Shown: positions 24,111-61,935, counted from the first letter of the stretch. The stretch: DNA of 64,000 bases from Candidatus Dojkabacteria bacterium (GCA_012513575.1 JAAZBX010000001.1:10163-74162), one strand, 5' to 3'. Notes: generated by a model from the sequence alone, not told the origin. Translations and numbers: made by a program.

Positions 24111-24114
24111 CTTT

Positions 24115-26749: not shown

Positions 26750-26761
26750 TCTTCTTAGATA

Positions 26762-27751: not shown

Positions 27752-27768
27752 TTGGTAAATATTTAATA

Positions 27769-29223
27769 TTAATTACTGAATGTTTTACTTGTATCTATTA
27801 AATACCCTTTCAATACTTCTCGACCAATTATTAGATGATAATCTGAATTCTCAATTATTACCACTTCAATATCTTTTATCTCGCCAGAGATTTTCACTTT
27901 AATATCAACAACTGGACGGACTTTGACATCTTCGCCATCAACAATTTTCGCAACTCTTTTGATATTCTCTTCCAAAGTTAATGCTTTTAAATGAGTATCA
28001 ATATATTCCTGAGCCTCTTTAATAGAGTTGAACTTTCTTGGAACATTTAGAGAATTAAAATATTGTGTAGTAGCTAAAAAACCAACTCTGTTAGCAAAAG
28101 TCTCTGACATTCTTGAAGTAAGTACCCCAGTATCCATAAAAGCACGGCCAGATTCTTTTTCGGGCTCTTTCTTCTTTGTTTTGTTTTGGTGAAAGACCAT
28201 TACTTTCTCATCAATTGTAACAACCTTTCTACCACTTATTGTTTCAATACTTTCTTCAACCTCCCCGCCAAAAAGACTCTTTGCTAATCTGATCCCATGT
28301 TTAATATTTTTTACTTCCACATCCTTAACTTTCTCTAGCCTCCATCTAAGTCCTGCTTTATTTGCGACTTGTATTCCAAGCCCAGGTCTTGCGTTAAGTT
28401 CAAAGACAATTGGTCCGTGTTCGGCATCTAGCGCGATATCTACACCAATGTATCCTAATTTTGATACTCTTTGACACTTTAGAGCGATTTCAAGAATTGA
28501 GTCCCATTCAGGTATATGAATTCCGCTTAAAATTTTGTTTTCCTTAAGATCCTGTGTTGTATCGATATCCTCATATGTGTCACTAAAAGGGGAGTTAGTA
28601 TCCATTTGCATAGAATAGGTAGTAATGCCAGTAGCAATATCAATTCCAGTACAAATAGCTCCAGAATGAAGATTTGCGGTACCATTAGACCTTTTTGTCG
28701 GAATTCTTGTCATTGCCATTATGGGTACGCCGTTAAAGCATATTACTCGGATATCTGGGACTCCCTTGTAAGAATACTGTTTAAGTAATGGAGCGGTCTT
28801 CACTCTTTCTTCAATAATAGCAATATCTTTTCGATTTCCCATCGAAAATCTTCCATCTAAGATGTTTTCTATATGAAGGATGATGTCATTTCTTGTCATA
28901 ATATCACCATTTGGTCTAATCCATGCATACTGTCCTTTCTTTTTCCCATAGAAAACAATTATGCCGTTGCCTCCAGTTCCTTGATTTGGCTTAATTACAA
29001 AGCTCTTTGGGAGAGAATCCCAGTCTATGAATTTAAGTTGTTGTTTGTTCCTAATTAATTTGTATACCTCAGGAGTCTTAATATTCTCTTTAGCTAGAAC
29101 CTTTTTTGTCAGAATTTTATTATCCGCAATCCTTTTAGCTGATGGAGGATTAAAAGGTCGAATGTATTCCTGGTTCCTTCTATTTAAACCCAAAATGTTC
29201 TTATACTTACTTCTTTGTGTCAT
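27769..29223 (-). CDS. RimK-related alpha-L-glutamate-ligase-like ATP-grasp enzyme fused to a C-terminal RimB-like retropepsin-type ('ATP-dependent Zn protease', DUF785-like) domain
   Basis: N-terminal 'ILGLNRRNQEYIRPFNPPSAKRIADNKILTKK' is the hallmark start of the alpha-L-glutamate-ligase-like family. ATP-grasp core 'FVIKPNQGTGGNGI', 'GVPDIRVICFNGVPIMAMTRI', 'YIGVDIALDAEHGPIVFELNARPG'. C-terminal domain with 'FMDTGVLTS' (D-T-G) and 'EVVIIENSDYHLIIGREVLKGYLID'. Confidence 0.7.
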   Translation of the reverse strand: MTQRSKYKNILGLNRRNQEYIRPFNPPSAKRIADNKILTKKVLAKENIKTPEVYKLIRNKQQLKFIDWDSLPKSFVIKPNQGTGGNGIIVFYGKKKGQYAWIRPNGDIMTRNDIILHIENILDGRFSMGNRKDIAIIEERVKTAPLLKQYSYKGVPDIRVICFNGVPIMAMTRIPTKRSNGTANLHSGAICTGIDIATGITTYSMQMDTNSPFSDTYEDIDTTQDLKENKILSGIHIPEWDSILEIALKCQRVSKLGYIGVDIALDAEHGPIVFELNARPGLGIQVANKAGLRWRLEKVKDVEVKNIKHGIRLAKSLFGGEVEESIETISGRKVVTIDEKVMVFHQNKTKKKEPEKESGRAFMDTGVLTSRMSETFANRVGFLATTQYFNSLNVPRKFNSIKEAQEYIDTHLKALTLEENIKRVAKIVDGEDVKVRPVVDIKVKISGEIKDIEVVIIENSDYHLIIGREVLKGYLIDTSKTFSN

Positions 29224-29872
29224 TTTCCTTAATTACAGATTTAAATCGAAAGTAGTCTTTGAGCCTTAATCCTTTAAATTGGCCAATAATTAAGTTGGCA
29301 AAGATTAATAACGGGATAAGCCACAAATTATTAATAACATAATTTGAAATGTAATCTCGAGTAATTACAAACCATCCAGCTGTGGCAATTAATACTGTTC
29401 CAAATAGTGCAGTAAATGAAGACTTACTTGATTTTTGTACAAATTGTTTAGTAAAGAAATCAGAAAGTGCGGCTATTGAAATTAACGCTAGAGGTGGGAC
29501 AGTGGACATATTTTCTAAGCCCAGACCCAACTCATCAATTAGTATAATAAAGGAAACTAAAGCGATGCTTAAAAGACAGTAGTTAATTGCAATTCTTGTA
29601 ATATAGTGCATTCTAATCTTCTTAAGTACCAGGTGGGAAAGTAATGATACTGTTATCACCATAAAAGTTATTGCCAATCCGTATTTTAAGCCAGTATAAG
29701 AATAGGCAATTGCAAGTAAAATAGGAGCATAAATCCCATATGATTTAGTCCCAAAAAGATATCTGAATATACTTACAATAGTTGCAACAATTGTAATAGC
29801 TAAAAAAAGCTCTAATGTTTTTTCGGGCACTCCATGTTCTAATATCCACTGAGTAAAAGTAGAGTAGTACAT
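29207..29872 (-). CDS. 7-TM integral membrane protein, first gene of the ATP-grasp operon
   Basis: Seven hydrophobic helices counted by eye. Overlaps the next gene by 17 nt. The position matches the 7TM partner of RimK-like/QEGLA cassettes but no transglutaminase domain is present. Confidence 0.55.
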   Translation of the reverse strand: MYYSTFTQWILEHGVPEKTLELFLAITIVATIVSIFRYLFGTKSYGIYAPILLAIAYSYTGLKYGLAITFMVITVSLLSHLVLKKIRMHYITRIAINYCLLSIALVSFIILIDELGLGLENMSTVPPLALISIAALSDFFTKQFVQKSSKSSFTALFGTVLIATAGWFVITRDYISNYVINNLWLIPLLIFANLIIGQFKGLRLKDYFRFKSVIKENDTKK

Positions 29873-39012: not shown

Positions 39013-39633
39013 TTAAATGAGACCTAATACCGAAAGAAGAAGGGAAGAGACCTTTGAAATTAGCAGAGATATTATTGATCCAAATGGAAATATGGGGATT
39101 AATAAAATAATTAAAAAGGGTATCTGAAATCTTTCAAGATTCTCCCAGTAATATCTAGCCTTCTGAGGTAAAAATGCTCTTACAATCTTATGTCCATCAA
39201 GAGGTGGGATTGGGAGAAGATTGAATATTGCTAAAACAATATTTACCATGGCAAAAGTTACGAAAAACACAGCCAATCCCCCAGTAGGTCTTAAAAGAGA
39301 ATTTAAAGCAGATATTACTAGTAATAGAAAGAAATTTGATAAAGGACCAGCAATAGAAACTAAGGCAGTATCCCTTGTTCTGTTTTCAAAATTGTATTCA
39401 TTTATTGGTACTGGTTTACTCCATCCAAATTTAAAAAGAATCATGCAGAGTGCTCCAAGAGGATCAATATGTTTGAGAGGGTTGAGAGTCAATCTGCCAT
39501 TTACTTTAGATGTTAAATCACCAAGCTTTGTGGCTGTCCAGGCATGAGCATATTCATGAAAAGTAGAGGCTATAACGATTGAAGGAATAGCAAATATAAT
39601 CCAGTAGAAAAAGCCTGAGTCAATTATGTTCAT
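39013..39633 (-). CDS. site-2 protease family (peptidase M50) membrane metalloprotease
   Basis: 'HEYAHAW' HExxH in a TM helix and 'LLPIPPLDG' (LDG motif). Polytopic. Confidence 0.8.
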   Translation of the reverse strand: MNIIDSGFFYWIIFAIPSIVIASTFHEYAHAWTATKLGDLTSKVNGRLTLNPLKHIDPLGALCMILFKFGWSKPVPINEYNFENRTRDTALVSIAGPLSNFFLLLVISALNSLLRPTGGLAVFFVTFAMVNIVLAIFNLLPIPPLDGHKIVRAFLPQKARYYWENLERFQIPFLIILLIPIFPFGSIISLLISKVSSLLLSVLGLI

Positions 39634-40031: not shown

Positions 40032-41105
40032 TTGTATTCATTTTTACCGATGAGCTTTATTGACTCTTTTTGGAAACTGATAACATATGATTTGGGCATT
40101 GATTTAGGAACAGCGAACACCATGGTATATATGAGGAATCACGGTGTTGTGGTATCTGAACCTTCAGTTGTTGCTATTGATAAAAGAACCAAAATGGTTC
40201 TGGCTGTTGGAAAAGATGCAAGGCAAATGATTGGTAGAACACCAAGCAATATTGTCGCAGTAAGACCTCTGCGTGATGGGGTGATCTCAGATTTTGATAC
40301 TACCCAAGCTATGATTCATCATTTTATTACAAAGTCTCATAAATATTTTACAAAAGGAATTAGAATTCAAAGACCAAGGGTGATTATTGGGGTACCTTCC
40401 TCTGTGACCGAAGTAGAAAGGCAGGCTGTGATTGATGCGGTTAAAACTGCACAAGCAAGAAAAGTCTATGTAGTTGAAGAGGCCATGGCTGCAGCAATAG
40501 GGGCAGGACTTCCGATAGAAGATGCGTCTGGGAGCATGATTATCGATTTGGGTGGTGGTACCACAGATATTGCAGTTTTCTCTTTGGGAGATATGGTCGT
40601 TGATAGGACAATGAAAATTGCAGGTGATGAGATGGATGAGGACATAATTAACTATGTAAAAAGTAAATACAACATGTTAATAGGGGAGAGAAGTGCAGAG
40701 GATATCAAAATAATGATGGGCTCAGCAATGCCACTTAAGAAAGAGAAAAAATACCCTGTCCAAGGAAGAGATTTACTTACAGGATTACCAAAAACTGTTG
40801 AAATTAGTAGTATTGAAGTTCGAGAGGCCATAATGAATACGATCTCATTAATAACCGAGGCGGTTAAAGATGCAATTGAAGAAACTCCTCCGGAATTACT
40901 TAAAGACTTGGTGTCCTCGGGTGTTTATGTCGCTGGTGGTGGTGCGTTGATTAGAGGTTTGGATACTTTCTGGACAAAGGAGTTAGAGTTGCCAGTAAAA
41001 ATTGTAGAAGATCCCTTATCAGCGGCGGCAAGAGGGACTTCATTAATGCTTGATCACATAGAATTGCTTGATAGAGTCCAAAGATCTTGGGAAGAATTAG
41101 TTTAA
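40032..41105 (+). CDS. mreB: rod-shape-determining protein MreB (paralog 2, in the mreBCD-mrdA operon)
   Basis: 'DLGIDLGTANTMVYMRNHGVVVSEPSVVA', full actin fold, followed by mreC/mreD/PBP2. Confidence 0.9.
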   Translation: MYSFLPMSFIDSFWKLITYDLGIDLGTANTMVYMRNHGVVVSEPSVVAIDKRTKMVLAVGKDARQMIGRTPSNIVAVRPLRDGVISDFDTTQAMIHHFITKSHKYFTKGIRIQRPRVIIGVPSSVTEVERQAVIDAVKTAQARKVYVVEEAMAAAIGAGLPIEDASGSMIIDLGGGTTDIAVFSLGDMVVDRTMKIAGDEMDEDIINYVKSKYNMLIGERSAEDIKIMMGSAMPLKKEKKYPVQGRDLLTGLPKTVEISSIEVREAIMNTISLITEAVKDAIEETPPELLKDLVSSGVYVAGGGALIRGLDTFWTKELELPVKIVEDPLSAAARGTSLMLDHIELLDRVQRSWEELV

Positions 41106-48216: not shown

Positions 48217-49353
48217 ATGGCAGAAGCCAAAAAAGAGGTCTTGCAGAAAACTGAGACCAAAAACAAAAGTTTTCAAATGCCAGAACTTTTAGATTTACTT
48301 AAAGTAGGTGCGCACTTTGGGCACAAAAAGAGTGCTTGGGATCCTCGAATGGAGAAGTATATCTACGAAATTAGAAATGGTATTCACATTATCGATTTGG
48401 TTAAGACCTTAGAGATGCTAGAAGTCGCTCTTCAAAAGATTCAACATTTCTCAGAAAGAGGCAATATCCTCATCGTTGGGACTAAAGGTCAAGCAGCGAC
48501 AATAATTGAAGATGTGGCAAAAAGAAGTGGTATGTTTTATGTAAATAGAAGGTGGCCAGGAGGTCTTTTCACAAATTTTGATGGAATTAAAAAGAGTGTT
48601 CAAACATTGGTTAAAATGGAGGAACAAATAGCTCGAGGAGGAAAAGGTCTTGTAAAAAAAGAGATACTTCTGCTTCAAAAAGATGTTGAGAGATTAAATA
48701 GAATGTACAGCGGTATTAAATTCATGGATAAGCTTCCAGAAGCAATTATCGTGGTCGATAGTGCAGTTGAGAAGAATGCTGTCAAAGAAGCGAGGAATAT
48801 GAATATTCCAATTATTTCTTTAATTGATACTAACTGTAATCCAGATGTAATTGATTACCCAATACCTGCAAATGATGATTCCCTAAAGAGTATTTCCCTC
48901 TTTGTTAATATCTTTGGTGATGTTGTAAAGGATTCCAAGAATTCTCTATCGGTCATTTCTTTAAGAAGAGATAATGATGCTTTACTTGCCAAATTAGAAA
49001 AAGAGGCAAATGAAGAGAAAGAAAGAATTGCAAAGATGGAAGAAGAGGAGAGGGAGAGAATGAAGGCTTTAAGAGAAGGGAAAATTACCTCTGTGACAAC
49101 CTCATCCGTAGTTAGAGTGGTAAAAAAAGAAAAGGATATTGATGCAGAGATAAAGAAAGCTGAAGAGGTAAAAGAGAAAGAAGATAAAAAGGGAATGGAT
49201 GATTTAGGTCTTAGTGTAAGAGTGGTAAAACTTTTAAATGATGCTGGATTGAAGTCTGTTCCAGCCTTAAAGAAACTTTCCAAGAAAGAGTTATTAGCAA
49301 TTAAAGGTATTGGAGAAAAAGCAGCTACTGATATCCTCAAAGCTTTAAAATAG
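48217..49353 (+). CDS. rpsB: 30S ribosomal protein S2 with about 130-aa C-terminal extension (charged coiled-coil plus HhH, RNAP alpha-CTD-like domain)
   Basis: S2 core 'AHFGHKKSAWDPRMEKYIYEIRNGIHIIDL'. Extension 'EKEANEEKERIAKMEEEERER...LGLSVRVVKLLNDAGLKSVPALKKLSKKELLAIKGIGEKAATDILKAL'. Confidence 0.9.
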   Translation: MAEAKKEVLQKTETKNKSFQMPELLDLLKVGAHFGHKKSAWDPRMEKYIYEIRNGIHIIDLVKTLEMLEVALQKIQHFSERGNILIVGTKGQAATIIEDVAKRSGMFYVNRRWPGGLFTNFDGIKKSVQTLVKMEEQIARGGKGLVKKEILLLQKDVERLNRMYSGIKFMDKLPEAIIVVDSAVEKNAVKEARNMNIPIISLIDTNCNPDVIDYPIPANDDSLKSISLFVNIFGDVVKDSKNSLSVISLRRDNDALLAKLEKEANEEKERIAKMEEEERERMKALREGKITSVTTSSVVRVVKKEKDIDAEIKKAEEVKEKEDKKGMDDLGLSVRVVKLLNDAGLKSVPALKKLSKKELLAIKGIGEKAATDILKALK

Positions 49354-51981: not shown

Positions 51982-53121
51982 ATGTCTATTTTTGTAAATA
52001 TCTTGCTTTTCCTTTTGGTCATAAGTATCTTAACCTTTGTACATGAGCTAGGACATTATGTTTCTGCGAAAATAATTGGAGCGAAGGTTCTAGAATTTTC
52101 CTTGGGTTTTGGGCCTAAACTTTTCTCTAAGAAGTGGAGAGAGACAATTTATAGTTTTAGGGGGTTACCTTTCGGAGGGTATGTGAAAATATTGGGAGAT
52201 GGTGATCCTGGGGAAGAGATGAATTCTAAGGCAGACGACAAGCGAGATTTGCGAAAAAAGCCTAAGTGGCAGCAGATATTCGTAATGCTTTCAGGGGTTA
52301 CTATGAATATCCTTCTTGCCATTTCAATCTATTATGTTGTTTTAGCCTCCAATGGCTGGGAGTTAGTATTAAATTCTGATTTCAAAGATTTTAAAGCGAT
52401 AGGGGCAGAAGTGTATCTAGAGAGAGAAGGGGTTGTCGAATACGAGATTATTGAAGGGGGGAAAGCCTCTGAAGCAAAGTTGCCTGAAAAGGGTTTTATC
52501 AAATCAATAGACAACAAAGAAATCGTATATATGGAAGAGGTAGGGGAGTATATTTCTACTAAAAAAGGGGAGACGATAAGTATAAATATTTGTGTTGATG
52601 AGAAGTGCTCAGATTATGTCATAGAGGTTCCCGAAGAGGGGAAAATTGGAATTTCTCTGCCCTCAAACTATCTTGTGATTCTTTCATATAAGGAGCATAA
52701 ATTGTTCGCAGGATTTTCTCACATCCGTAACAGTCTCGTGCTAATAGGTAATAAGCTTGAAGAAATGATCGGGAATGCAAGGCTTTCTGGTGATTATAGC
52801 GAGATTTCCAATTCAGTCTCTGGTCCTGTGGGGATATATTTTGTGATAGACTACTTTAAAAAATTTGGAGTAATACCATTCCTGGGAATGATAGCGGATC
52901 TTTCTGTGTCGTTGGCACTTGTAAATGTCCTCCCAATACCTGCCCTAGATGGTGGAAGAGTCCTGATCCTACTTCTAGAATGGATAGCAGGTAAAGAGCT
53001 TGATGAGAAGATTGAAACAAAAATAATTAATGGTAGTTTTATATTCCTAATAATTTTGATACTATTTATTATTATTAAAGATATAGTTAATATAGATAGT
53101 ATGAAAGAATTATTTAAGTAA
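51982..53121 (+). CDS. rseP: RIP metalloprotease RseP (M50 site-2 protease with PDZ)
   Basis: 'HELGHYVSAKIIGAKV' HExxH in TM1, a central PDZ-like region, C-terminal 'NVLPIPALDGG'. Confidence 0.85.
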   Translation: MSIFVNILLFLLVISILTFVHELGHYVSAKIIGAKVLEFSLGFGPKLFSKKWRETIYSFRGLPFGGYVKILGDGDPGEEMNSKADDKRDLRKKPKWQQIFVMLSGVTMNILLAISIYYVVLASNGWELVLNSDFKDFKAIGAEVYLEREGVVEYEIIEGGKASEAKLPEKGFIKSIDNKEIVYMEEVGEYISTKKGETISINICVDEKCSDYVIEVPEEGKIGISLPSNYLVILSYKEHKLFAGFSHIRNSLVLIGNKLEEMIGNARLSGDYSEISNSVSGPVGIYFVIDYFKKFGVIPFLGMIADLSVSLALVNVLPIPALDGGRVLILLLEWIAGKELDEKIETKIINGSFIFLIILILFIIIKDIVNIDSMKELFK

Positions 53122-53130
53122 TATTAGTAC

Positions 53131-54450
53131 ATGAGCAATATTAGAGTAGGGGTTGGTAAGAAGGGTATAGTTTTGGCACTTATTGTAGGTGTTTTATTGC
53201 TTGGAGGTGGAGGAGGGTATTTACTTTGGAGAGTTAATCAAGAGGATACAGTAGCGCCCACAGATAGTGATGCGAGTGAACAGGTTTGTGTGGATAGATG
53301 TACGGGGACCTGTTCTCAGGCTTACCCTTGGCAATCTCCCGACCAGTGTACAGATGATGCTTATAAGGGATGCGAATTTGTCTCTGCTGGGGGGAATGTA
53401 TTACATGGTTGTTGTCTTTATGAAAGAGAATGTAACATAACTGCATATCATATTACATATGCCGCTGGTGCGAATGGATCTGTCACGAACGCAGGACAAA
53501 ACAGTGTAGCTCCAGGTGGGAGTATTAGTTCAACTGCAAGTCCTTCAGTAGGATATAGATTTGTAAAATGGAGTGATAATAAAACAACTGCAACAAGAAC
53601 AGACACGAATGTTCAAGCGGATGCAATATATACTGCGATTTTCGAGGTTCTTCCTTCTGACCAAGTTACATTAACATATATCGCAGGTAGCGGAGGGACA
53701 ATATCAGGAACAGCAACTCAAACAATTGCCAAAGGAGCAAGCGGTACTGCCGTAACAGCAACACCTAATAGTGACTATACTTTTGAAAAATGGAGTGATA
53801 ATAAAACAACTGCAACAAGGACTGATACGAATGTACAAGTAAGTGCAACATATACTGCTACATTTAAATCAACATCTCCTACTACCCCTGTAAACTGTAC
53901 AGGTTTTACATTGTCCTGTGGTGCAAACAATACAATTAATATTAATTGGAATCTTGTAACAGGTGCAGTTAAATACATTGCTAGAATCAATAAAGCACCA
54001 AAGAGTGACTGGCTTAATGAAGAAGGAGGTGATGTATGGATAGCTCTCGGACCAGATGTAAATAGCTATGTAATCCAGAATGCTCAATCAGGAGTGGTGT
54101 ATGGAGTTAATGTTCTAGCATATGATGGACCAGATGGCCAGACAGATTTTCATCCTAGTTGTAACATGACAGGTTTGGGACAGATCTGGGATCCTCCAAT
54201 GTATATTGAAATTGCATGTCAAGGAACTTCCCCCATTGTTGTCCCTGATACAGGTATTTTTGATAATTCTAAACATACAGTAATATTTGGCTTTGTTGTA
54301 TTAGTAATTGGTTTGGCTTGGACATGGATATCTACTTTACCGAAGAAAGCACTCTTCGCTATTTCTTCTACTAGTAGTAAAATTAGAGAAGATAGTGAAA
54401 GAAGAAGAGTTGAGAATAGAAGAGAGAGATTAGAAAAAAGAATAAAATAA
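53131..54450 (+). CDS. cell-surface protein with N-terminal signal anchor, Listeria-Bacteroides (Flg_new-type) repeats, and C-terminal 'PDTG' sorting-signal-like motif plus TM plus basic tail
   Basis: N-terminal 'MSNIRVGVGKKGIVLALIVGVLLLGGGGGYLLWRVNQE'. Two 'GY.F.KWSDNKTTATRTDTNVQ' repeats (nucleotide repeats at 53566-53617 and 53788-53839). C-terminal 'VVPDTGIFDNSKHTVIFGFVVLVIGLAWTWIS...RRRVENRRERLEKRIK'. Confidence 0.6.
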   Translation: MSNIRVGVGKKGIVLALIVGVLLLGGGGGYLLWRVNQEDTVAPTDSDASEQVCVDRCTGTCSQAYPWQSPDQCTDDAYKGCEFVSAGGNVLHGCCLYERECNITAYHITYAAGANGSVTNAGQNSVAPGGSISSTASPSVGYRFVKWSDNKTTATRTDTNVQADAIYTAIFEVLPSDQVTLTYIAGSGGTISGTATQTIAKGASGTAVTATPNSDYTFEKWSDNKTTATRTDTNVQVSATYTATFKSTSPTTPVNCTGFTLSCGANNTININWNLVTGAVKYIARINKAPKSDWLNEEGGDVWIALGPDVNSYVIQNAQSGVVYGVNVLAYDGPDGQTDFHPSCNMTGLGQIWDPPMYIEIACQGTSPIVVPDTGIFDNSKHTVIFGFVVLVIGLAWTWISTLPKKALFAISSTSSKIREDSERRRVENRRERLEKRIK

Positions 54451-54463
54451 AATATTTATTTAA

Positions 54464-56206
54464 ATGGCTAATATAAGAGTAAGTGCTAGTAAAAAGACAA
54501 CAGTTATTATATTACTCCTTCTATTTCTTGTTGTAGGTGGTACAGGTGGATATTTGTTATGGAGGGTTAATCAGGAGAAAGAATTAAGTCCTGGGGAAAG
54601 TGAGGCTGGAAGTAACCAATGCAACTGTTATAAGCCTGGTGAAAGTTGCGGAAGCTTACCAGATTGTAATAATGTAAGTTATCCTATTTCTTGCTATTGT
54701 GTTTATGTGCAAGCAACATGCCCTTTATTACCACTATGTACTCCAGGAGAGGTTCCGCAGTGCACACAAGGCTCTCATTGTACCGAAAAAGTCCATTGTA
54801 TTTGGCCAGAGGTGGCGTATTGTCAAAGCGGTACTTGTATTTGTAAATCTCCACCTAACGGTTGTTATGACACAGAGCCTCAATGTACTCCTCAATGTCC
54901 AGAAGGTTATGAAAAATGCTCAGGAGCTGATTGTACTGGAGAGATAAAAGATGTTGAGTGTAGTCATGATTGTGCAAGTTGTAACAATAGATACTATGTA
55001 AGGGCAAAATGTAAAAAAATTGTTACAAATACCTGTGGCGATGGTAATAAGGGTGGTAGTGAGGCTTGTGATCCTCCTGGATCTGTATGTACAGCTGCAA
55101 GTGGGAAACAGAGTACATGTTCTTCTACATGTACATGTCCTGAACCTGCCAATATTTGTGGTGATGGGAATAAAGCAGGAGACGAGGCTTGTGATCCTCC
55201 AGGATCTACATGCACAACGGCAAGTGGTAAAGAGGGTACATGCTCTTCTACATGTACATGTCCTGAGCCTCCTGTTGGAAATATATGTGATGCACAGGGC
55301 GCCAAATGGGTAACTCAGCCACCCAGTAGGGTAGAATTCGGCAAACCAATATCTTTTGAATATATTACTGGCGACACTGATGGGGTACAAAATGTAAATA
55401 TAATTGTAAAACTTGATGGGACATCTGTTCCAGTAACAAAAATTCCTGCAACAGACAATGCTCCTAATATTACGGTTAAAGGAACTTTAAATGGTAGTGA
55501 AGGTGTCTTAAGTCCTGGGAACCATAAACTTGAAATATCTTGGAATGACATTAAAGGTGCAGGAGGTCTTCCTTGCTATGCATACAGTATGATTACAGTT
55601 TTGCCTGAAAATCCAGAGTGGGATATTGAGAAAAAAGCATTACAAACATGCGTAAATGACTGGACGGAAAATCCAACTTCAAATCTAACATATACAGTTA
55701 CCATTACAAACACAAATACTGGTTCTGGAGCTGGAACAATCACAAGTATTCTTGACACTTTAGATCCTAAAGTAGATTCAACCAAGGTAACAAATATTTC
55801 AAATGGAGGGGTAATTTCCAATGGCAAAATTGTTTGGAATTTAACATCTCCATTATCTGATTTTGATCCTGGGGAATCGAAATCCTTTACATATTCGATA
55901 AGTGTAAACAAAGAATCCTTTGGAATATATGAGAATACTGTAGTTGCAACCCCCGACATCTCTAGTGGGGATTCTTCCAACTTAGAGGCATCTGTGAATA
56001 TTGAAGCAAGATGTAATGTTCCTGGAGAACCTGTTCAACCAGATACTGGGCTTTTTGATGACTCCAAAAATATTGTAATTTTGGGAGCGGCATTACTCTT
56101 TGCAGGTTTAGGGTGGTCATGGATTACTGATTCCTTCGGTACTATGAAACAGAAAATCTCGTACGAAAGTAAAGCAAGATTCGAAAAAAGAGTATCAAAA
56201 AGATAG
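54464..56206 (+). CDS. paralogous cell-surface protein with Cys-rich 'CGDGNK..EACDPPGS' tandem repeats and the same N-terminal and C-terminal sorting modules
   Basis: N-terminal 'MANIRVSASKK...GGTGGYLLWRVNQE'. Numerous Cys. Two 41-aa tandem repeats. C-terminal 'VQPDTGLFDDSKNIVILGAALLFAGLGWSWIT...KRVSKR'. Confidence 0.6.
   Translation: MANIRVSASKKTTVIILLLLFLVVGGTGGYLLWRVNQEKELSPGESEAGSNQCNCYKPGESCGSLPDCNNVSYPISCYCVYVQATCPLLPLCTPGEVPQCTQGSHCTEKVHCIWPEVAYCQSGTCICKSPPNGCYDTEPQCTPQCPEGYEKCSGADCTGEIKDVECSHDCASCNNRYYVRAKCKKIVTNTCGDGNKGGSEACDPPGSVCTAASGKQSTCSSTCTCPEPANICGDGNKAGDEACDPPGSTCTTASGKEGTCSSTCTCPEPPVGNICDAQGAKWVTQPPSRVEFGKPISFEYITGDTDGVQNVNIIVKLDGTSVPVTKIPATDNAPNITVKGTLNGSEGVLSPGNHKLEISWNDIKGAGGLPCYAYSMITVLPENPEWDIEKKALQTCVNDWTENPTSNLTYTVTITNTNTGSGAGTITSILDTLDPKVDSTKVTNISNGGVISNGKIVWNLTSPLSDFDPGESKSFTYSISVNKESFGIYENTVVATPDISSGDSSNLEASVNIEARCNVPGEPVQPDTGLFDDSKNIVILGAALLFAGLGWSWITDSFGTMKQKISYESKARFEKRVSKR
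55034..55285 (+). repeat. tandem direct repeat (2 units of about 123 and 129 nt) encoding the Cys-rich module inside the surface-protein gene
   Basis: Units begin at 55034 and 55157 (tgtggcgatgg... / tgtggtgatggg...), near-identical. They generate spurious ORFs on both strands in the ORF track. Confidence 0.8.
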
Positions 56207-56263
56207 TAAAATTTTTACATAGTGTGGTATAATCACCCTTAGTATTATTTAAAGGAGGTAAAT

Positions 56264-56464
56264 ATGTCAGTTATAGTACATTCTAATGAAAATATAGATA
56301 GTGCCCTCAAAAGACTTCACAGAGAAGTATTGAGAGAAAAAATCTTAGAAACATACAAGAACAAAGCTTACAGAATAAGAGAAGCAGATCTTGATATTGC
56401 CAAAAGAAAAGAATGGGCAAAAAGAAAAAGAAGAAGAAGGGCTGCCGCAAGAAGAGCTAGATAA
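56264..56464 (+). CDS. rpsU: 30S ribosomal protein S21
   Basis: 'SALKRLHREVLREKILETYKNKAYRIREADLDIAKRKEWAKRKRRRR' matches the S21 family. Confidence 0.85.
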   Translation: MSVIVHSNENIDSALKRLHREVLREKILETYKNKAYRIREADLDIAKRKEWAKRKRRRRAAARRAR

Positions 56465-57927: not shown

Positions 57928-60333
57928 ATGGATAGTATTAGTGAAAAATTTGTCTCAAAGTGCAAAGGGCTGAGGTCCCTAATTCTTGATAAAAAGTCTG
58001 TCACAGGTATTGATAAAGAGTATTTGGAATTTTCGGCTGAATTGCTTGGTTTAATCCTCAATGATGTAGTTTGGCTTTCAACGACTCCTGAGAAAGATAG
58101 TGAAGAGAACATAAAAGAAATAGGAGTTGGAGAAAAATTTGATATAAAAATTCTTGAGGATTTAGGATATTGCAGAGTTGAAAGAGTATGGGAGGTGGGA
58201 GAGTACTCTGTTTTAGGTGATGTGATTGTTGTTTGGCCTTTTAGTATGAAGAATATATTAAGAATTAGTCTTTTTGGGAACAATATTGAAAGTATTGATA
58301 TTGTTGAGAGTTCAACCCGAAAGAAAATTGAAAGTGTTAAAAGAAGAATTTTAGTTGATTCTTCTACTACATTATTAATTGGGAATGAAGAAGCAGAGCA
58401 TAGGACAAAGATTTCTTTTAAGGAGGGATTAGGGCTTGGAGAGGAGGAGGCTGTCAATCTTGGGATTCGAACTATCCCAGGAATGGAAGTATATTCATCT
58501 GTCCATGCAACTAAGGAAATTGTAAACAATTTTAAAAACAGAGGATATGAGATTATATATATATCAAGTAATTTAGATAGATATGAACTTGAGGTTGAGA
58601 AGTCATTAAAAAACTCTTTTGATATGATATTTTTAGCAAATGGGAGGTACAAGGATATCATAAAAAGAGGTTTTCTCTTTAATTCTGTTAAACTTCTTGT
58701 GTTAACGGACATGGAAGTTTTGGGAGAGCTTGATTTGTCAGATTTCTGGGAGAAAAATAGGAATATTGATCCAGGATCAATAGAAATTCTTAAAAAGATA
58801 ATTCCAGGGGATTATGTAGTTCATGAGGATCATGGGATAGGAAAGTTCGTTGATTTGCAACTTAAAGAGGGTGGGTATTACATACAGATTGCATATGCTG
58901 GTAGTGATAAGCTTTTTGTTCCCTTGAGTGCATCCCAAAAGATAACAAAATATATTGGAGCAGGGAGGGCGAAACCAATTTTAACAGGTTTGAATAGTGG
59001 AAGCTGGAGAAGAATATCACAAAAAGCTAGAGAAAGGGCAGAGGATATCGCTAAAGAGCTAATTCAGCTCTATGCTCTTCGAGAGACTGTTGAGGTAAAT
59101 GCAGTACTCTCTAATGAAGAAGATTTGGCAGATTTCAATACGTTTGTAGAAAGATTTGAATACAAGGATACAGATGATCAGTATATTGCAACTAGTCATT
59201 TGGTTAAGGATCTTCAGAAAGGAAAACCTTTGGATAGGTTGCTTGTCGGTGATGTGGGGTATGGAAAGACCGAAATTGCAATGAGGGCAATGTATGCAGT
59301 AGTTAATGCAGGATTCCAAGCAGCTCTTCTTGCCCCAACCACAATCTTGGTTCAACAACATTATGCAGTGTTAAAAAAGCGTTTCGAAGGTACAGCGATA
59401 ACCATTAAAGCTCTATCAAGATTAATTTCAAGTAAACAACGAGAAGATATTTGGGAAGGGTTAAAAAGGGGGAGTGTTGATATCATTGTTGGTACACAGG
59501 CACTTCTTAATGAAGAAATTCAGTTTAAAGATTTGGGATTACTTGTAGTCGATGAGGAACAGAAATTTGGGGTGAAACAGAAAGAGAAGATTAAGAGGAA
59601 GAAGTTAAATGCAAATGTTCTCTCCTTAACCGCCACTCCAATACCTAGGACATTAAACATGGCTTTGATGGGGATTCGGGATATTTCTGTACTTTCGACA
59701 CCTCCATCAGGGAGAAGGGAGATTCAGAATCACTTTGGGAAGTTTGATTGGGACAAAGTTCATGAAATTATCACAAAGGAGTTGAATAGAGGAGGTCAGG
59801 TTTACTTCCTTCATAACCGAGTTGAAACGATTCAGAATATTTATGATAAATTGGACAAGTTGTTCCCTCAAGCAAAAGTAAAGGTAATTCATGGGCAGAT
59901 GGGTGTTCAAACTTTATCTGAAAATATGCAAAGTTTTGTAGAGGGGGATGCGAAAATATTGCTTTGTACAACGATAATTGAGAATGGCTTAGACATTCCG
60001 AATGTGAATACACTTATAGTGGATGATGCAACAATGTTAGGACTTGCACAGATGTATCAAATAAGGGGAAGAATTGGGAGGTCAGAAAAGCAAGCCTATG
60101 CTTATTTCTTATATAATTCACTTAAGGGGAATTCTGCCTTAAGATTAGAAGCGTTAAAAAATTCTCAGGAGTTAGGTTCTGGTTTTTTGCTCTCAAATAG
60201 AGATTTGGAAATAAGAGGGGCTGGAGATATTCTCGGGAAAAATCAATCTGGGGCTATTAATTCCGTAGGTTATGGGCTTTATACTCAAATGCTCTCAGAT
60301 GCAGTGGAAAAAATCAAAAGATTGGGTAAATAA
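57928..60333 (+). CDS. mfd: transcription-repair coupling factor Mfd, compact form (801 aa) lacking the C-terminal D7 region
   Basis: UvrB-homology motif 'GEYSVLGDVIVVWPF...ISLFGNNIESIDIV'. Superfamily-2 translocase motifs 'GDVGYGKTEIAMRA', 'DEEQKFG', 'QIRGRIGRSEKQAYAYF'. The protein ends shortly after the TRG-like 'LEIRGAGDILGKNQSG'. Confidence 0.75.
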   Translation: MDSISEKFVSKCKGLRSLILDKKSVTGIDKEYLEFSAELLGLILNDVVWLSTTPEKDSEENIKEIGVGEKFDIKILEDLGYCRVERVWEVGEYSVLGDVIVVWPFSMKNILRISLFGNNIESIDIVESSTRKKIESVKRRILVDSSTTLLIGNEEAEHRTKISFKEGLGLGEEEAVNLGIRTIPGMEVYSSVHATKEIVNNFKNRGYEIIYISSNLDRYELEVEKSLKNSFDMIFLANGRYKDIIKRGFLFNSVKLLVLTDMEVLGELDLSDFWEKNRNIDPGSIEILKKIIPGDYVVHEDHGIGKFVDLQLKEGGYYIQIAYAGSDKLFVPLSASQKITKYIGAGRAKPILTGLNSGSWRRISQKARERAEDIAKELIQLYALRETVEVNAVLSNEEDLADFNTFVERFEYKDTDDQYIATSHLVKDLQKGKPLDRLLVGDVGYGKTEIAMRAMYAVVNAGFQAALLAPTTILVQQHYAVLKKRFEGTAITIKALSRLISSKQREDIWEGLKRGSVDIIVGTQALLNEEIQFKDLGLLVVDEEQKFGVKQKEKIKRKKLNANVLSLTATPIPRTLNMALMGIRDISVLSTPPSGRREIQNHFGKFDWDKVHEIITKELNRGGQVYFLHNRVETIQNIYDKLDKLFPQAKVKVIHGQMGVQTLSENMQSFVEGDAKILLCTTIIENGLDIPNVNTLIVDDATMLGLAQMYQIRGRIGRSEKQAYAYFLYNSLKGNSALRLEALKNSQELGSGFLLSNRDLEIRGAGDILGKNQSGAINSVGYGLYTQMLSDAVEKIKRLGK

Positions 60334-60375
60334 TTTTCTCTTGGCAAACTTTTCGAATTGAACTAACATATAAAC

Positions 60376-61935
60376 ATGTCCTCAGTACTATATCAAAAAT
60401 ATAGGTCTCAGAATTTTGACCAAATTATAGGTCAAGAAAATGTAACAAAGCTCCTTAAGAACGCTATTAAAAAAGATCAGCTAGCTCATGCATATCTTTT
60501 TGTTGGATCTAGGGGTACTGGGAAGACTTCTACAGCGAGGATATTAGCTAAAGCAGTAAACTGTACTAATATTCAGAAAGACGGAAATCCTTGTCTTGAA
60601 TGTGAGCATTGCAAAGCCATTGCGAATGGGACTTTTTTAGATCTGATGGAGATAGATGCCGCATCCAATCGAGGGATTGATCAGATTAGGGAGCTAAAGG
60701 AAAGAATTGAATTTTCCCCAAGTGAGGGCAAATACAAGGTATATATCATTGATGAGGTGCATATGTTAACTACAGAGGCTTTTAATGCTCTTCTTAAAAC
60801 TCTTGAAGAACCCCCAGCACATGTGATTTTCATTTTGGCAACGACAGATGTTCATAAATTGCCACCAACGATTCTTTCAAGATGTCAAAGGTATGATTTT
60901 AGATTGGGTACAGACAAAGAGGTAAAAGAGTTAATCCAAGCAATTTGCAAAGAAGAGAAAATTAAAATTCAAGATGAAGCACTAGATATAGTTGTACAAA
61001 ATGCTAAGGGAAGTTACAGAGATGCTCTCTCACTGATGGATGTAGTATATAGTGGGCAAGAGCAAAGTAAGTCCGAGATTACTCTTGATGAGGTAAGGAA
61101 GACTTTAGGGCTTCCAGATTCTGAAAAGGTAATTTTACTTCTTTCAAGCTTAGTGAGTGGTGATGGAGGGAAGGCGTTAGAGATTATTGAAGGGTTGGAG
61201 TCCAGTGGTTTGAATTTACAACAATTTACAGCCTATATACTTGACACTTTAAGAAGAATTTTTACAGCAAAGATTAAAGGAACGATTGAGAAGGAATACT
61301 CATATATTAAAGATATTGATATTCGAGAATTGCATAAATTAATTAATCTTTTCTTAGAGGCCGAAAACAGGATAAGGTATGCAAATAATCAGGCACTTGT
61401 TTTAGAAATGATTATTCCAGAGATGATGAAACCTAATGTTCAAAGTGATGTTAAAATTGTAAATAGAGATGTAAAAAAAAGAATTTCAGTAGTTGAAGAA
61501 CCAAAAGAAAAAGTGGTACAAAGAGAGTGTGTTAAACAGGTCTCTCTGGATGAAATAAACAGTAAATGGGAGAGTTTTATTGAGGAGATTCGTCCTTTTA
61601 ATCACCACCTGTACGCATTTGTTGGAGCTGCCCACATTATCTCTTTTGAGAATGGGATATTACATATAGAAGTTCCTTTCTCTTTTCACAAGGAAAGGAT
61701 AGAAATCCCCAAGAGTAAAAATATTATCTCTGAAGTATTTACTAAGGTGTATGGAGTTCCTTGTAATATTGAATGCGATGTGAATTCTGCGATGAAACCC
61801 ATTGAGAAGGCTGATGCGGAGACTGTTTTGAAAAATCTTCCAACTCCCAAACCCTCAGAGAAATCAAAAAGAAATTTTAAACCTAGAGGAAGCTCTAAGA
61901 TTAATGATATAGAGGCCATCTTTGAAGGTGTTTAG
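60376..61935 (+). CDS. dnaX: DNA polymerase III subunit gamma/tau
   Basis: 'YRSQNFDQIIGQENV...AYLFVGSRGTGKTSTARILAKAVNC', zinc module 'CLECEHC', SRC motif 'LSRCQRYDF'. Confidence 0.9.
   Translation: MSSVLYQKYRSQNFDQIIGQENVTKLLKNAIKKDQLAHAYLFVGSRGTGKTSTARILAKAVNCTNIQKDGNPCLECEHCKAIANGTFLDLMEIDAASNRGIDQIRELKERIEFSPSEGKYKVYIIDEVHMLTTEAFNALLKTLEEPPAHVIFILATTDVHKLPPTILSRCQRYDFRLGTDKEVKELIQAICKEEKIKIQDEALDIVVQNAKGSYRDALSLMDVVYSGQEQSKSEITLDEVRKTLGLPDSEKVILLLSSLVSGDGGKALEIIEGLESSGLNLQQFTAYILDTLRRIFTAKIKGTIEKEYSYIKDIDIRELHKLINLFLEAENRIRYANNQALVLEMIIPEMMKPNVQSDVKIVNRDVKKRISVVEEPKEKVVQRECVKQVSLDEINSKWESFIEEIRPFNHHLYAFVGAAHIISFENGILHIEVPFSFHKERIEIPKSKNIISEVFTKVYGVPCNIECDVNSAMKPIEKADAETVLKNLPTPKPSEKSKRNFKPRGSSKINDIEAIFEGV

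Follow-up and report, generated by a model that had tools for sequence, protein, structure and literature searches.

Two adjacent genes of Candidatus Dojkabacteria, an uncultured ultra-small bacterium, encode proteins that begin alike and end alike, which raises the question of whether these common ends form a sorting signal and, if so, what kind of enzyme would read it. The genes lie in a stretch of 64,000 nucleotides (GCA_012513575.1 JAAZBX010000001.1:10163-74162), referred to here as the window; coordinates are counted from its first nucleotide, and every feature described is on the plus strand. ORF A (53131-54450) encodes 439 amino acids and carries the long-tail (T1A) form of the family signal, and ORF B (54464-56206) encodes 580 amino acids and carries the 25-aa-tail (T1B) form. 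The AF2 models of the two proteins have mean pLDDT values of 81.5 and 74.5, respectively.

Two neighbouring proteins with common ends

BLASTP comparison aligned the N-termini of the two proteins (27/53 identical, E 6e-11) and their C-termini (28/80 identical, E 1e-10), and yielded no HSP below E=3 beyond these two ends. As only the ends gave better matches than this, the middles are unrelated, and similarity is confined to the first ~50 and last ~70 residues. A preliminary description of this DNA had proposed two ORFs with common termini and unrelated middles at these positions, and the comparison bears this out.

The shared start, termed the N-module, covers residues 1-48 of each protein, with a predicted helix at residues 10-35 and the string YLLWRVNQ at residues 30-37 in both. 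In ORF A (53131-53274) it consists of a basic n-region, a hydrophobic core, GGGGG, YLLWRVNQ and TVAPTDSDA, with a net charge of +3 ahead of the helix and acidic residues behind it; in ORF B (54464-54607) the corresponding elements are GGTGG, YLLWRVNQ and KELSPGESEA. At the DNA level, the two N-modules are no more than 61% identical.

The shared end, termed the C-module, contains in both proteins the PDTG-x-FD motif and transmembrane (TM) helix that had been described: the motif is VPDTGIFD at residues 371-378 of ORF A (54241-54264) and QPDTGLFD at residues 525-532 of ORF B (56036-56059). The TM helix occupies residues 383-403 of ORF A (54277-54339), where it bears a conserved Gly, Gly and Trp, and residues 537-555 of ORF B (56072-56128); hydropathy maxima at 382-404 and 536-555 coincide with helices in the AF2 models. 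The basic tails, earlier put at 25-38 aa, measure 36 aa in ORF A (54340-54447; 13 K/R and 6 D/E, ending RRERLEKRIK, predicted cytoplasmic and helical at 406-438) and 25 aa in ORF B (56129-56203; 8 K/R, ending ARFEKRVSKR). There are exactly two hydrophobic segments per protein, with charges distributed in keeping with an N-in/C-in topology. In both AF2 models, most of the motif falls in a low-confidence coil that separates the folded domains from the TM helix, with pLDDT <50 at residues 372-374 of ORF A and 522-529 of ORF B.

A recurrent C-terminal module

A profile of the tail was searched against 1.84 billion representative proteins, with clusters at 50% identity. The module recurred in 70 cluster representatives at E<=1e-3, of which 37 matched at E<=1e-10. 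The match is C-terminal in all of them except P0036, a repetitive outlier; in P0048, P0053 and P0060 the alignment stops 20-41 residues early, yet the module reaches the C-terminus. The idea that the shared motif is a recurrent module thus gained support, with at least four otherwise unrelated protein types carrying it. An LPDSG cohesin-like group, an MPKTG group and ORF A/B have only the tail in common, and the first two groups combine ordinary, apparently cleavable signal peptides with the same C-module, including the Gly, Gly and Trp of the helix. The C-module is an autonomous C-terminal module. The N-module was found in 44 of 65 apparently full-length members, as a basic n-region of ~11 aa and a hydrophobic and Gly-rich stretch of ~18 aa; some members without it have ordinary-looking signal peptides, and the remainder are apparently truncated.

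The module runs in the order [V>Q,L,I,M]-P-x-T-[G/A]-[I/L]-F-D, about four polar residues, TM helix and basic tail. Among 73 sequences, the first position is Val in 46 (63%), Gln in 7, Leu in 7 (10%), Ile in 6, Met in 4, Ala in 2 and Thr in 1. Pro is present in 73/73 (4.32 bits), the third position is free (D/E/K/Q/A/N/S/V), and Thr is found in 69/73 (95%; 3.97 bits), followed by Gly in 63 (86%) or its sole alternative, Ala, in 10 (3.75 bits for G/A); Phe (72/73, 4.22 bits) and Asp (69/73, 4.02 bits) are similarly conserved. Behind the motif, 12-26 residues (about 19-21 as a rule) run without a charged one in 73/73 sequences, and the TM helix carries Gly+16 (73/73), Gly+23 (72/73) and Trp+26 (67/73). 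Tails measure 22-58 aa (median 37) and end in (R/K)(F/L)E(K/R)(K/R)(I/V)xK; this terminal basic cluster (RRxRLEKRIK or RFEKRVSKR) closes the protein, with 15-45 extra residues between it and the TM helix. The 25 residues upstream of the motif are enriched in Pro (2.1-fold) and Glu (1.6-fold) and depleted of Lys and aromatics, like a wall-spanning linker.

None of the curated sorting-signal models detects the C-module. TIGR01167 (LPXTG_anchor) matched 3 of 61 tails, at E>=0.063 and below its cut-off, and PF00746 (Gram_pos_anchor) matched neither ORF A nor ORF B at E<=1 and no protein of the 65-member Pfam census at E<=0.001. The named CTERM models (PEP-CTERM, GlyGly-CTERM, MYXO-CTERM) gave no match to full-length ORF A or ORF B in NCBIfam at E<=1, and for the 61 tails at E<=10 none was among the matches listed, the 25 most often matched of 28 families.

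Variable adhesin-type middles

Between its ends, ORF A contains two InlB B-repeat domains at residues ~106-247 (53446-53871; pLDDT >90), matched in two stretches by Pfam Flg_new_2 (PF18998, E 7e-22), confirming the Flg_new-type repeats noticed earlier. The string KWSDNKTTATRTDTNVQ occurs twice in ORF A, at residues 146-162 and 220-236, with 47/51 nucleotides identical. At residues ~255-362 (53893-54216) there is a fibronectin-III-like beta-sandwich domain with AF2 strands at 260-362, for which Foldseek against the PDB returned tandem FnIII proteins, and single FnIII domains at TMt 0.65-0.74.

ORF B has a Cys-rich region (54608-55273) with 35 Cys in residues 49-270 and low pLDDT at residues 36-95. 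The 41-aa repeat CGDGNK..xEACDPPGS occurs in it twice, from residues 191 and 232 (nt 55034 and 55157); it had been described as a Myxococcus-type Cys-rich repeat, and the repeat itself stands, but the Myxococcus-type label does not, with no NCBIfam or Pfam match at E<=1. Two Ig-like beta-sandwich domains occupy residues ~280-380 and 385-515 (55301-56008; AF2 pLDDT roughly 85-97), and their Foldseek matches include domains of PrgB, ClfA, SdrG, CNA and SspB, all sortase-anchored adhesins. The second of these domains resembles DUF11, which Pfam matched in ORF B at E 0.0012 and in 19/65 family members in the census (best E 9.4e-25). Middles across the family comprise InlB B-repeat, DUF11, LRR_adjacent, CARDB, Big_7 and FnIII/Ig domains. 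Array genes with identical ends encode 364-597 aa with adhesin-type beta-sandwich middles, in agreement with the variable surface-protein family with constant ends that had been suggested.

Lineage restriction, synteny and array organisation

All members with readable genomic context lie in Candidatus Dojkabacteria-type synteny, as the earlier proposal of a lineage-specific system would have it. The main slot, rpsB-tsf-frr-rseP-[array]-rpsU-yqeY-ybeY, holds 1-3 members in 28 reference genomes, and relatives have further members at up to three other slots (PBP2-dprA, mfd-dnaX, argS-uvrA). Copies per genome are apparently few, about 2-5, with 2 in this window. Here rseP, which encodes an M50 site-2 protease (51982-53121; Pfam Peptidase_M50 6.6e-51), ends 9 nt before ORF A and scores 194 bits with the NCBIfam RseP equivalog model TIGR00054 (cut-off 147.55); rpsU (ribosomal protein S21, 56264-56464; Pfam Ribosomal_S21) is the conserved downstream boundary of the slot. 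In every locus with an upstream flank, rseP lies directly upstream of the array (9-60 nt), even at 49% RseP identity.

Tail subtypes are kept by array position across species in 28 genomes, the last array gene keeping the ORF B subtype. ORF A and ORF B are old paralogues, each with its own tail subtype and array position. As subtype and position are conserved for each gene across species, the two did not exchange cassettes recently; of the modular swap proposed earlier, variable middles between constant ends were confirmed and a recent exchange between these two genes was not. Two adjacent genes sharing only their ends might also be explained by recent duplication or gene conversion between neighbours, with no signal at all. 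That reading is contradicted by the occurrence of the tail on unrelated proteins at other loci, spread over 70 clusters at 50% identity, and by the orthologous, positional conservation of tail subtypes in 28 genomes, and it also sits poorly with N-modules that are just 61% identical in DNA; we give it hardly any weight.

In several genomes, the middle array gene has the same N-module and ends in LPGTA, LPGTS, MPQTS or MPQTA, a TM helix and a 13-16-aa basic tail (T2). These T2 genes have the N-module and Flg_new repeats in common with the family but carry a different C-terminal signal.

A candidate sortase-type signal and its alternatives

Judged by their sequences, ORF A and ORF B appear to represent a Dojkabacteria-specific family of adhesin-like surface proteins, presumably exported and laid out as N-module, variable beta-sandwich and C-module, in which the shared end module probably marks proteins displayed on the surface of this organism. 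A slight balance of probability lies with the C-module being a variant cell-wall sorting signal of the sortase type that goes together with a specialised signal peptide. The N-module would then act as a Sec signal peptide or a signal anchor of a specialised kind that carries the protein across the membrane, and the TM helix and basic tail would keep the precursor there. The flexible Pro-rich linker would offer [V/I/L/Q/M]-P-x-T-[G/A] to a sortase, which would cut after Thr and link the ectodomain to peptidoglycan, and the remnant (G-[I/L]FD.., helix and long helical tail) would remain in the membrane. The strong conservation of the remnant suggests an additional role for it, possibly in specific docking to the enzyme, or in signalling or quality control like streptococcal C-pep. 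The analysis shows the architecture, motif logo, topology signals, lineage restriction, conserved synteny, variable adhesin middles and unstructured linker; we infer export, cleavage after Thr, a sortase as the enzyme, anchoring to the wall and some part in surface or host attachment. If this reading is true, the peptide PIVVPDTGIFDNSK is expected to be a Dojkabacteria sortase substrate, beside the LPGTA type.

Several observations argue for a sortase. The pentapeptide is conserved in an LPxTG-like manner (invariant P, T at 95%, G at 86% or else A, a free third position and a hydrophobic or variable first), in a tripartite layout at the extreme C-terminus. The preliminary description had noted the replaced Leu as a departure from LPXTG, but this does not take the motif out of sortase chemistry: pneumococcal pilins have VPDTG (RrgC) and IPQTG (RrgB) as established sortase signals, which shows that Val or Ile in the first position does not preclude cleavage by a sortase (PMC5640630). 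The motif sits in a low-confidence coil with a Pro-rich linker upstream, sister array genes carry more canonical LPGTA-type short-tail signals, and the middles have the folds of sortase-anchored adhesins. The source genome encodes peptidoglycan wall machinery (PBP2, MreBCD and a LysM-M23 peptidase), and sortases are found in more than half of CPR genomes (PMC6744442), with reports from SR1, WWE3 and TM7 and predicted substrates in WWE3 and TM7 (PMC6744442; PMC3812714). There is precedent both for a special signal peptide that accompanies LPXTG (YSIRK/GXXS; PMC5962339) and for a functional sortase remnant (S. gordonii C-pep; Hall 2019, as cited in PMC11326707).

Against a sortase, searches with PF04203, the TLxTC motif and S. 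aureus SrtA/SrtB (phmmer) found none in the window and 10 kb beyond each end (~84 kb of the 451-kb contig), nor in the sequence flanking some 50 related loci; these loci largely re-sample the same conserved block, and the search covered ~100 kb of unique Dojkabacteria sequence. Outside Microgenomates, the distribution of sortases is described as patchy (PMC6744442). In addition, the tails are not recognised by TIGR01167 or PF00746, and their length stands against the usual 2-5 basic residues of the Haft criteria. The invariant Gly/Gly/Trp and conserved tail end, absent from generic sortase A substrates, would also suit recognition by a specialised membrane enzyme or an anchor that is never removed. 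Such an anchor would hold an extracellular loop between the N- and C-terminal TM helices, with PxTG[I/L]FD as an uncleaved structural interface. It would account for the two hydrophobic segments with N-in/C-in charges, for GGxGG in the first helix and Gly+16/Gly+23/Trp+26 in the second, which could reflect helix-helix packing, for a predicted cytoplasmic helical tail conserved to its last residues, and for the lack of a sortase nearby. However, since the LPDSG and MPKTG groups keep the whole C-module, Gly/Gly/Trp included, with ordinary signal peptides, the C-terminal helix is independent of an N-module partner. A free position flanked by an invariant P and T typifies protease or transpeptidase sites, not packing motifs, and the motif falls within a low-confidence, flexible linker; we regard permanent two-ended anchoring as unlikely.

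A dedicated enzyme other than a sortase, specific to the lineage and reading the C-module and possibly the N-module in the manner of exosortase, rhombosortase or myxosortase, is distinctly unlikely in our estimation. It would suit a module that has most of Haft's tripartite attributes and is covered by no curated model, and signals that intramembrane enzymes read are typically conserved within the TM helix, as here. In one version, the adjacent RseP would clear or release the Gly-rich type-II N-anchor or the tail-bearing remnant; type-II orientation and a helix-destabilising Gly run, both seen in the N-anchor, favour S2P substrates (RseP). The constant position of rseP ahead of the array is relevant here, as consecutive enzyme and target genes are a mark of dedicated systems (Haft, bioRxiv 10.1101/2023.06.07.544157). 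However, the M50 protein is by score the housekeeping RseP equivalog, and as rpsB-tsf-frr-rseP is an ancestral bacterial string within a ~25-kb block that is all syntenic, the adjacency may be inherited rather than functional. Members at the PBP2-dprA, mfd-dnaX and argS-uvrA slots have no adjoining M50 gene, the C-terminal helix has the type-I orientation, which disfavours S2P, the ~84 kb region read showed no exosortase, rhomboid or CPBP gene, and the motif is close to sortase chemistry. More elaborate, and in our view very improbable, is a two-ended Dojkabacteria sorting and signalling device beyond a classical sortase alone, in which a dedicated membrane enzyme would read the Gly/Gly/Trp helix with PxTG[I/L]FD, and RseP would then cut the N-anchor and/or the remnant, so that the conserved helical basic tail, set free in the cytoplasm, would report surface-protein deployment or host contact. 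If true, an ultra-small episymbiont would thereby link the sorting of its adhesins to regulated intramembrane proteolysis.

Comparison with known sorting systems

Like LPXTG proteins of sortase A (TIGR01167, PF00746), the family has a C-terminal tripartite signal with x-P-x-T-G, in which P and T are invariant (T here 69/73) and the third position is free, on Ig-like or adhesin surface proteins of a monoderm-type cell with a Pro-rich linker ahead. It differs in favouring Val over Leu at position 1, in an obligatory [I/L]-F-D past the Gly and in the invariant Gly, Gly and Trp of the TM helix. The tail is 22-58 aa long, predicted helical and conserved at its end, with the basic cluster far from the TM helix, whereas that of LPXTG proteins has a few Arg/Lys; curated HMMs miss the family, and no sortase was found in ~84 kb of the contig or in relatives' flanks. 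The pentapeptide and TM helix of LPXTG proteins are present, but the short tail and the match to curated models are not. The S. pneumoniae pilins (RrgC and RrgB; class C sortases, SrtA) share VPDTG with ORF A and IPQTG with L035 and P0031/P0032. The pilins belong to another phylum; neither a pilin motif nor an E-box is seen here, nor a pilus operon with a sortase of its own, and the flanking FD, TM residues and tail are foreign to pilins.

With PEP-CTERM/exosortase, GlyGly-CTERM/rhombosortase and MYXO-CTERM/myxosortase, the family shares a lineage-restricted, HMM-definable combination of motif, TM helix and basic end, present in several copies per genome on otherwise unrelated proteins. The attributes listed by Haft that are found here are C-terminal location, multiple occurrences per genome, a conserved signature motif, a predicted N-terminal signal peptide in most members (the N-module in 44/65, ordinary-looking in others), member pairs sharing nothing but the signal, and homologues with a different signal. 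The same work describes a hydrophobic TM segment and then 2-5 clustered basic residues that close the protein (bioRxiv 10.1101/2023.06.07.544157); here the TM helix is present and a basic cluster does end the protein, but it lies 15-45 residues beyond the helix. The signature is sortase-like rather than PEP, GG or Cys, matches none of the models listed, occurs in apparently about 2-5 copies per genome, and no partner enzyme was found for it in the region read.

The pairing of a conserved N-terminal export motif with a C-terminal sorting signal recalls YSIRK/GXXS signal peptides (PMC5962339), although GGxGG-YLLWRVNQ..TVAPTDSxA lies behind the hydrophobic core and not ahead of it, has an unrelated sequence and is not known outside Dojkabacteria. 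C-pep, the TM-plus-tail remnant of sortase A substrates, is sensed by a two-component system in S. gordonii (Hall 2019, as cited in PMC11326707), and, purely by analogy, a remnant with its own function after cleavage would explain selection on the helix and tail of this family. As far as sequence can tell, the family signal is set apart from those catalogued by its combination of a sortase-like VPxTG-[I/L]FD, a membrane helix and a long, conserved basic tail.

Two adjacent genes share their ends and differ in their middles

The preliminary description had placed two paralogous surface proteins side by side in the window, and two adjacent ORFs on the + strand are indeed found there, ORF A (53131-54450, 439 aa) and ORF B (54464-56206, 580 aa). 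When compared by BLASTP, the two proteins have 27 identical residues within the first 53 (E 6e-11) and 28 identical residues within the last ~80 (E 1e-10), and no segment between the ends aligns better than E=3. The shared start that had been described was recovered, with YLLWRVNQ at residues 30-37 in each protein, as was the shared ending, in which x-PDTG-[I/L]-FD-x-SK (residues 371-378 in ORF A and 525-532 in ORF B) is followed by a hydrophobic helix and then by a basic tail of 36 residues in ORF A and 25 in ORF B. We refer to the common start as the N-module and to the motif, helix and tail as the C-module; no other ORF of the 64-kb window has the same C-terminal ending. The repeats of ORF A, previously noted as Flg_new-type, correspond to two InlB B-repeat (Flg_new_2) domains (Pfam, E 7e-22). 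The sole Pfam match of ORF B is a weak one to DUF11, and the "Myxococcus-type" label proposed for its two CGDGNK..EACDPPGS repeats was not confirmed by any Pfam or NCBIfam model.

In the AlphaFold2 model of ORF A (mean pLDDT 81.5), residues 10-35 are helical, confident beta-sandwich domains span ~100 to 362, and confidence is low at 372-374, the Pro, Asp and Thr of the motif. The TM helix covers 380-402, and the tail folds into a further helix at 406-438; tandem fibronectin-III domains are the fold matches of its ectodomain. The ORF B model (mean pLDDT 74.5) likewise starts with a helix at 10-35, followed by a Cys-rich stretch of low confidence and a pair of confident beta-sandwich domains. 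Confidence is low again at 522-529, a stretch that takes in the first five motif residues, and the C-terminal helix spans 534-577. Among the fold matches of ORF B, at low TM-score, are Ig-like domains of the sortase-anchored adhesins PrgB, ClfA, SdrG, CNA, SspB and ACE.

The genes are closely packed, with gaps of 9 nt between rseP and ORF A, 13 nt between ORF A and ORF B, and 57 nt between ORF B and rpsU, and ORF A and ORF B are likely co-transcribed with rseP, as predicted here. Promoter-like and terminator-like sites were not commoner than in shuffled sequence. An obvious Shine-Dalgarno sequence precedes only rpsU, with AAAGGAGG (56230-56264), and none is recognisable in the AT-rich 9-13-nt gaps upstream of ORF A and ORF B (53100-54470).

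The C-module is a recurrent domain

In order to survey the C-module, a profile built from six tails was searched with HMMER against 1.84 billion cluster representatives, yielding 70 matches at E<=1e-3, 37 of them at E<=1e-10. The match lies at the C-terminal end of the protein in all but one case, the repetitive protein P0036. The exhaustive scan was needed because a word-indexed search of a 5.8-billion protein set, with two tails as query, had returned only 6 fragments. In a motif logo of 73 sequences, position 1 is mostly Val (V46/Q7/L7/I6/M4/A2/T1), position 2 is always Pro (73/73), position 3 is free (D29, E19, K11, Q9, others), position 4 is Thr in 69/73, and position 5 is Gly (63) or Ala (10), followed by I/L, Phe (72/73) and Asp (69/73). 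After ~4 polar residues comes the TM helix, in which +16 is Gly in all 73 sequences, +23 is Gly in 72 of them and +26 is Trp in 67, and then a Lys/Arg-rich tail of 22-58 residues (median 37) with the conserved end (R/K)(F/L)E(K/R)(K/R)(I/V)xK. In the 25 residues preceding the motif, Pro (2.1x) and Glu (1.6x) are overrepresented, whereas Lys and aromatics are underrepresented. The C-module is a real, recurrent domain.

Curated models do not detect it, whether by NCBIfam at E<=10 on 61 tails or by Pfam on family members. At that NCBIfam threshold, LPXTG_anchor matches 3 of the 61 tails (best E 0.063), LPxTATN matches one, and PEP-, GlyGly-, MYXO- and other CTERM models are absent from the families listed; Gram_pos_anchor is listed by Pfam neither for ORF A and ORF B (E<=1) nor in a census of 65 members. 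The weak similarity of the tail to the "SCO2097 family" (NCBIfam E 0.008-0.02) falls far under the 110-bit cut-off and was taken to be compositional. A description of the module was not found in curated libraries, and full-text literature searches combining Dojkabacteria/WS6 with sortase, and using the pentapeptides themselves, found no account of it.

The tail is an autonomous module, as it also occurs on proteins with ordinary-looking signal peptides that are otherwise dissimilar to ORF A and ORF B. One such group, of ~225 aa with LPDSG or LPDTG tails, adjoins a Gly-rich protein containing Dockerin_1 and a paralogous small secreted protein; another, with MPKTG tails, sits between PBP2 and dprA (including L019). 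Both groups keep the Gly/Gly/Trp of the helix and the tail-end motif, and their contigs have Dojkabacteria-type synteny, with L047 corresponding to 8-24 kb and L044 to 42-45 kb of the window. The atypical members P0045, P0061 and P0075 have as context only contigs of 1.3-3.7 kb. At the LPDSG loci (L047 7491-10690; L006 1-3376), the ~225-aa protein is beta-rich, the Gly-rich neighbour matches Dockerin_1 at a Pfam E of 8.4e-5, and the divergently transcribed, paralogous-looking secreted protein has a plain C-terminal TM and is 47% identical between the two loci. The LPDSG protein and its Dockerin_1 neighbour may represent a cohesin/dockerin-like surface module in which the tail is borne by the anchor protein. 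A metagenome scan for the LPDSG subgroup returned mostly known Dojkabacteria arrays and one informative 29-kb contig, on which a sortase was not found.

A fixed locus with variable content

The window corresponds to 131135-195134 (reversed) of a 450,994-bp contig in metagenome assembly ENA ERZ795066, has a GC content of 31-38%, and encodes a small-genome housekeeping set with monoderm-type wall machinery (PBP2, MreB/C/D and a LysM-M23 peptidase). Scanning one genome per GTDB species for the N-module pattern, a survey biased towards YLLWRVNQ-bearing members, yielded 34 loci in 28 assemblies, whose record titles include Candidatus Dojkabacteria, candidate division WS6 and "uncultured Candidatus Saccharibacteria" (automated TPA). 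In all loci long enough to show flanks, the gene order is that of the window, and RseP is 49-88% identical to the window's; based on this common order and identity, the loci were treated as one lineage, Dojkabacteria (Patescibacteria/CPR). Complete or near-complete assemblies with members of the family include GCA_018056375.1 (JAGPFQ010000001.1), JBMNHB010000001.1, ERZ795066 NODE_7 and JGI Ga0499520_000004, and several source records give anaerobic digesters or activated sludge as the habitat. A scan of viral contigs with the N-module gave no confirmed relative.

In every reference locus with visible flanks the slot reads rpsB-tsf-frr-rseP-[1-3 members]-(rpsU)-yqeY-ybeY-pth-mfd-dnaX-recR. The first gene of the array carries the long "STLP...RLE+RIK" tail of ORF A, and the last carries the 25-aa "...RFEKRVSKR" type of tail seen in ORF B. 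Several genomes have a middle gene with the same N-module and a more canonical signal (LPGTA, LPGAA, LPGTS, MPQTS or MPQTA), followed by ~6 residues, a "SLYI.." TM and a 13-16-aa basic tail (L007 8312-9991; L014 12364-13974; L017 8173-9420; L019 10001-11722; L026 1653-3191; L028 564-1811). These middle genes have only sub-threshold NCBIfam similarity, to the C-terminus of the enterococcal LPXTG protein EF0750, and the window genome is without one. As the array order is conserved, ORF A and ORF B are old paralogues, each keeping its own tail subtype. The explanation that a mere recent duplication accounts for the common ends is excluded, and recent conversion between the two genes is likewise ruled out, their N-modules being 61% identical at the DNA level.

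Close relatives with the same ends vary in length, from 364 to 597 aa for the A-type and from 432 to 893 aa for the B-type. The N-terminal 50 residues are generally conserved about as well as, or better than, the best-aligned middle part, and for roughly every second A-type relative, no more than 46-64% of the middle of ORF A is alignable. The Pfam census of 65 members found Flg_new_2 (25), DUF11 (19), Flg_new (18) and LRR_adjacent (7) and, more rarely, DUF7927, DUF7619, PEGA, CARDB, HYR, Big_7 and an Ig-like domain.

Some genomes have an extra member, with a QPKTG or VPETG tail, between mfd and dnaX (L024 16134-17972; L032 5059-6087; L041 2-1762; L054 6320-8185), a slot that is vacant in the window (60333-60376). 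Four slots are known for the family, all inside a ~55-kb block covered by the window. Other genes of the window were also recorded. Two M50 metalloproteases lie within 13 kb, a full RseP equivalog beside the array (51982-53121, +) and a minimal one of 206 aa (39013-39633, -) whose best NCBIfam match, far sub-threshold, is a daptide-biosynthesis intramembrane protease. Four ATP-grasp/RimK-type ligases (RimK, GARS_A, RimK-like and ATPgrasp_ST) and a 7TM_transglut membrane protein on the - strand (22517-29872) adjoin a MATCAP-family protein on the + strand; this cluster resembles a system for ligating or modifying peptides, although the genome encodes very little metabolism. The gene for ribosomal protein S2 (48217-49353, 378 aa) has an extra RNA_pol_A_CTD/HHH_5-like region by precomputed Pfam annotation, a fusion kept in relatives. 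Two MreB paralogues occur in one 20-kb stretch (21477-22496 and 40032-41105), the second followed by mreC, likely mreD, and PBP2. A PEGA-domain protein is encoded at 18852-20393 (-), and ComEC (DUF4131 and Competence) and a metallo-beta-lactamase domain form separate, overlapping, unfused ORFs (9899-12380).

Export and the reading of the C-module

The N-module starts 44 of the 65 apparently full-length members. It consists of a basic n-region of ~11 residues, a core of ~18 residues running from hydrophobic to Gly-rich and ending in GGGGG, GGTGG or GGSGG, and then YLLWRVNQ and TVAPT[D/E]S[D/E/S]A. This reads as a putative Sec signal peptide or signal anchor, in which a conserved motif follows the hydrophobic part. 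A prepilin-type (class III) signal is unlikely, since the Gly after the basic stretch varies (KKG, KKT, KKS, RKT) and Glu at +5 is absent. The proteins contain just two hydrophobic segments, located at opposite ends, with a net charge of +3 ahead of the first, acidic sequence behind it and a strongly basic C-terminal tail. This arrangement predicts a topology of N-in, ectodomain out, C-in.

On balance, we favor reading the C-module as a variant of the sortase-type cell-wall sorting signal. The strongest support comes from the conservation pattern, in which a free position lies between an invariant Pro and a near-invariant Thr, followed by Gly, for which Ala is the sole substitute. This motif sits in a flexible linker rich in Pro, immediately outside a TM helix whose cytoplasmic end is basic, and sortase substrates have this appearance. 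Pneumococcal pilins provide established cases of Val or Ile at position 1, namely RrgC (VPDTG) and RrgB (IPQTG) (PMC5640630), and the still more ordinary LPxTA-type signal of the middle sister genes speaks for the use of sortase-type sorting in this lineage. Candidate substrate peptides for such an enzyme would be PIVVPDTGIFDNSK, EPVQPDTGLFDDSK and DDLPGTAASPEG. A sortase was not found in the window, within 10 kb of either of its ends or in the flanks of the related loci, amounting to ~100 kb of unique sequence, as the related loci re-sample the same conserved block. This search comprised precomputed Pfam annotation, Pfam at E<=1 on unannotated ORFs, which found no sortase in or near the window, a TLxTC pattern, and phmmer with S. 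aureus SrtA/SrtB; over all ORFs of the window and ~50 loci, whatever the latter two matched was spurious (antisense ORFs, CysRS and a family member). Sortases are common in the CPR: according to Méheust et al., over half of the genomes have a sortase family, which is near-ubiquitous in Microgenomates and has a patchy distribution in other groups (PMC6744442), and Kantor et al. describe sortases from SR1, WWE3 and TM7, together with predicted sorted proteins from the latter two (PMC3812714). The pairing of a special signal peptide with LPXTG has a precedent in YSIRK/GXXS, as outlined in PMC5962339. The membrane remnant left by sortase can itself be functional, as with C-pep of S. gordonii (as cited in PMC11326707), and by analogy this might provide a reason for selection on the helix and tail of the C-module.

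Two other readings were weighed. Permanent membrane anchoring at both ends seems unlikely, as members without the N-module still keep the conserved helix of the C-module. That helix would fit recognition by a dedicated non-sortase enzyme, for which the always-adjacent RseP is an obvious suspect; however, the score of RseP (194 bits, cut-off 147.55) is that of the housekeeping equivalog, frr-rseP is an ancestral gene string, and no M50 lies beside the members in the other three slots. We consider such an enzyme unlikely.

Significance and comparison with known sorting signals

Much of bacterial diversity belongs to the Patescibacteria (CPR), and those in cultivation live attached to host cells. 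To our knowledge, little has been learned of CPR surface molecules apart from type IV pili, and we know of no cultured member of the Dojkabacteria. The C-module provides a sequence tag for a small set of displayed proteins of these uncultured bacteria, encoded at a fixed, housekeeping-embedded locus and having adhesin-like middles that vary between close relatives. Given this combination, they are prime candidates for a role in attachment to hosts or substrates and in strain-level specificity. As an HMM, the C-module could improve the annotation of Dojkabacteria genomes, and it is a clean query for a partner enzyme by phylogenetic profiling.

In terms of protein sorting, the C-module is an uncatalogued C-terminal domain. 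Generic sortase A substrates are without the obligatory [I/L]FD, the invariant helix residues and the long conserved helical tail found here, and the criteria of Haft describe a basic cluster of 2-5 residues at the end (bioRxiv 10.1101/2023.06.07.544157). These additional features suggest that a specific partner recognises the signal at or within the membrane. The C-module thus joins a sortase-type pentapeptide with the conserved in-helix residues and long conserved tail otherwise seen in signals for intramembrane enzymes, and we would class it as a tripartite signal of the sortase-like kind, in which the conserved membrane and cytoplasmic portion is extended and which is paired with an export module specific to the lineage.
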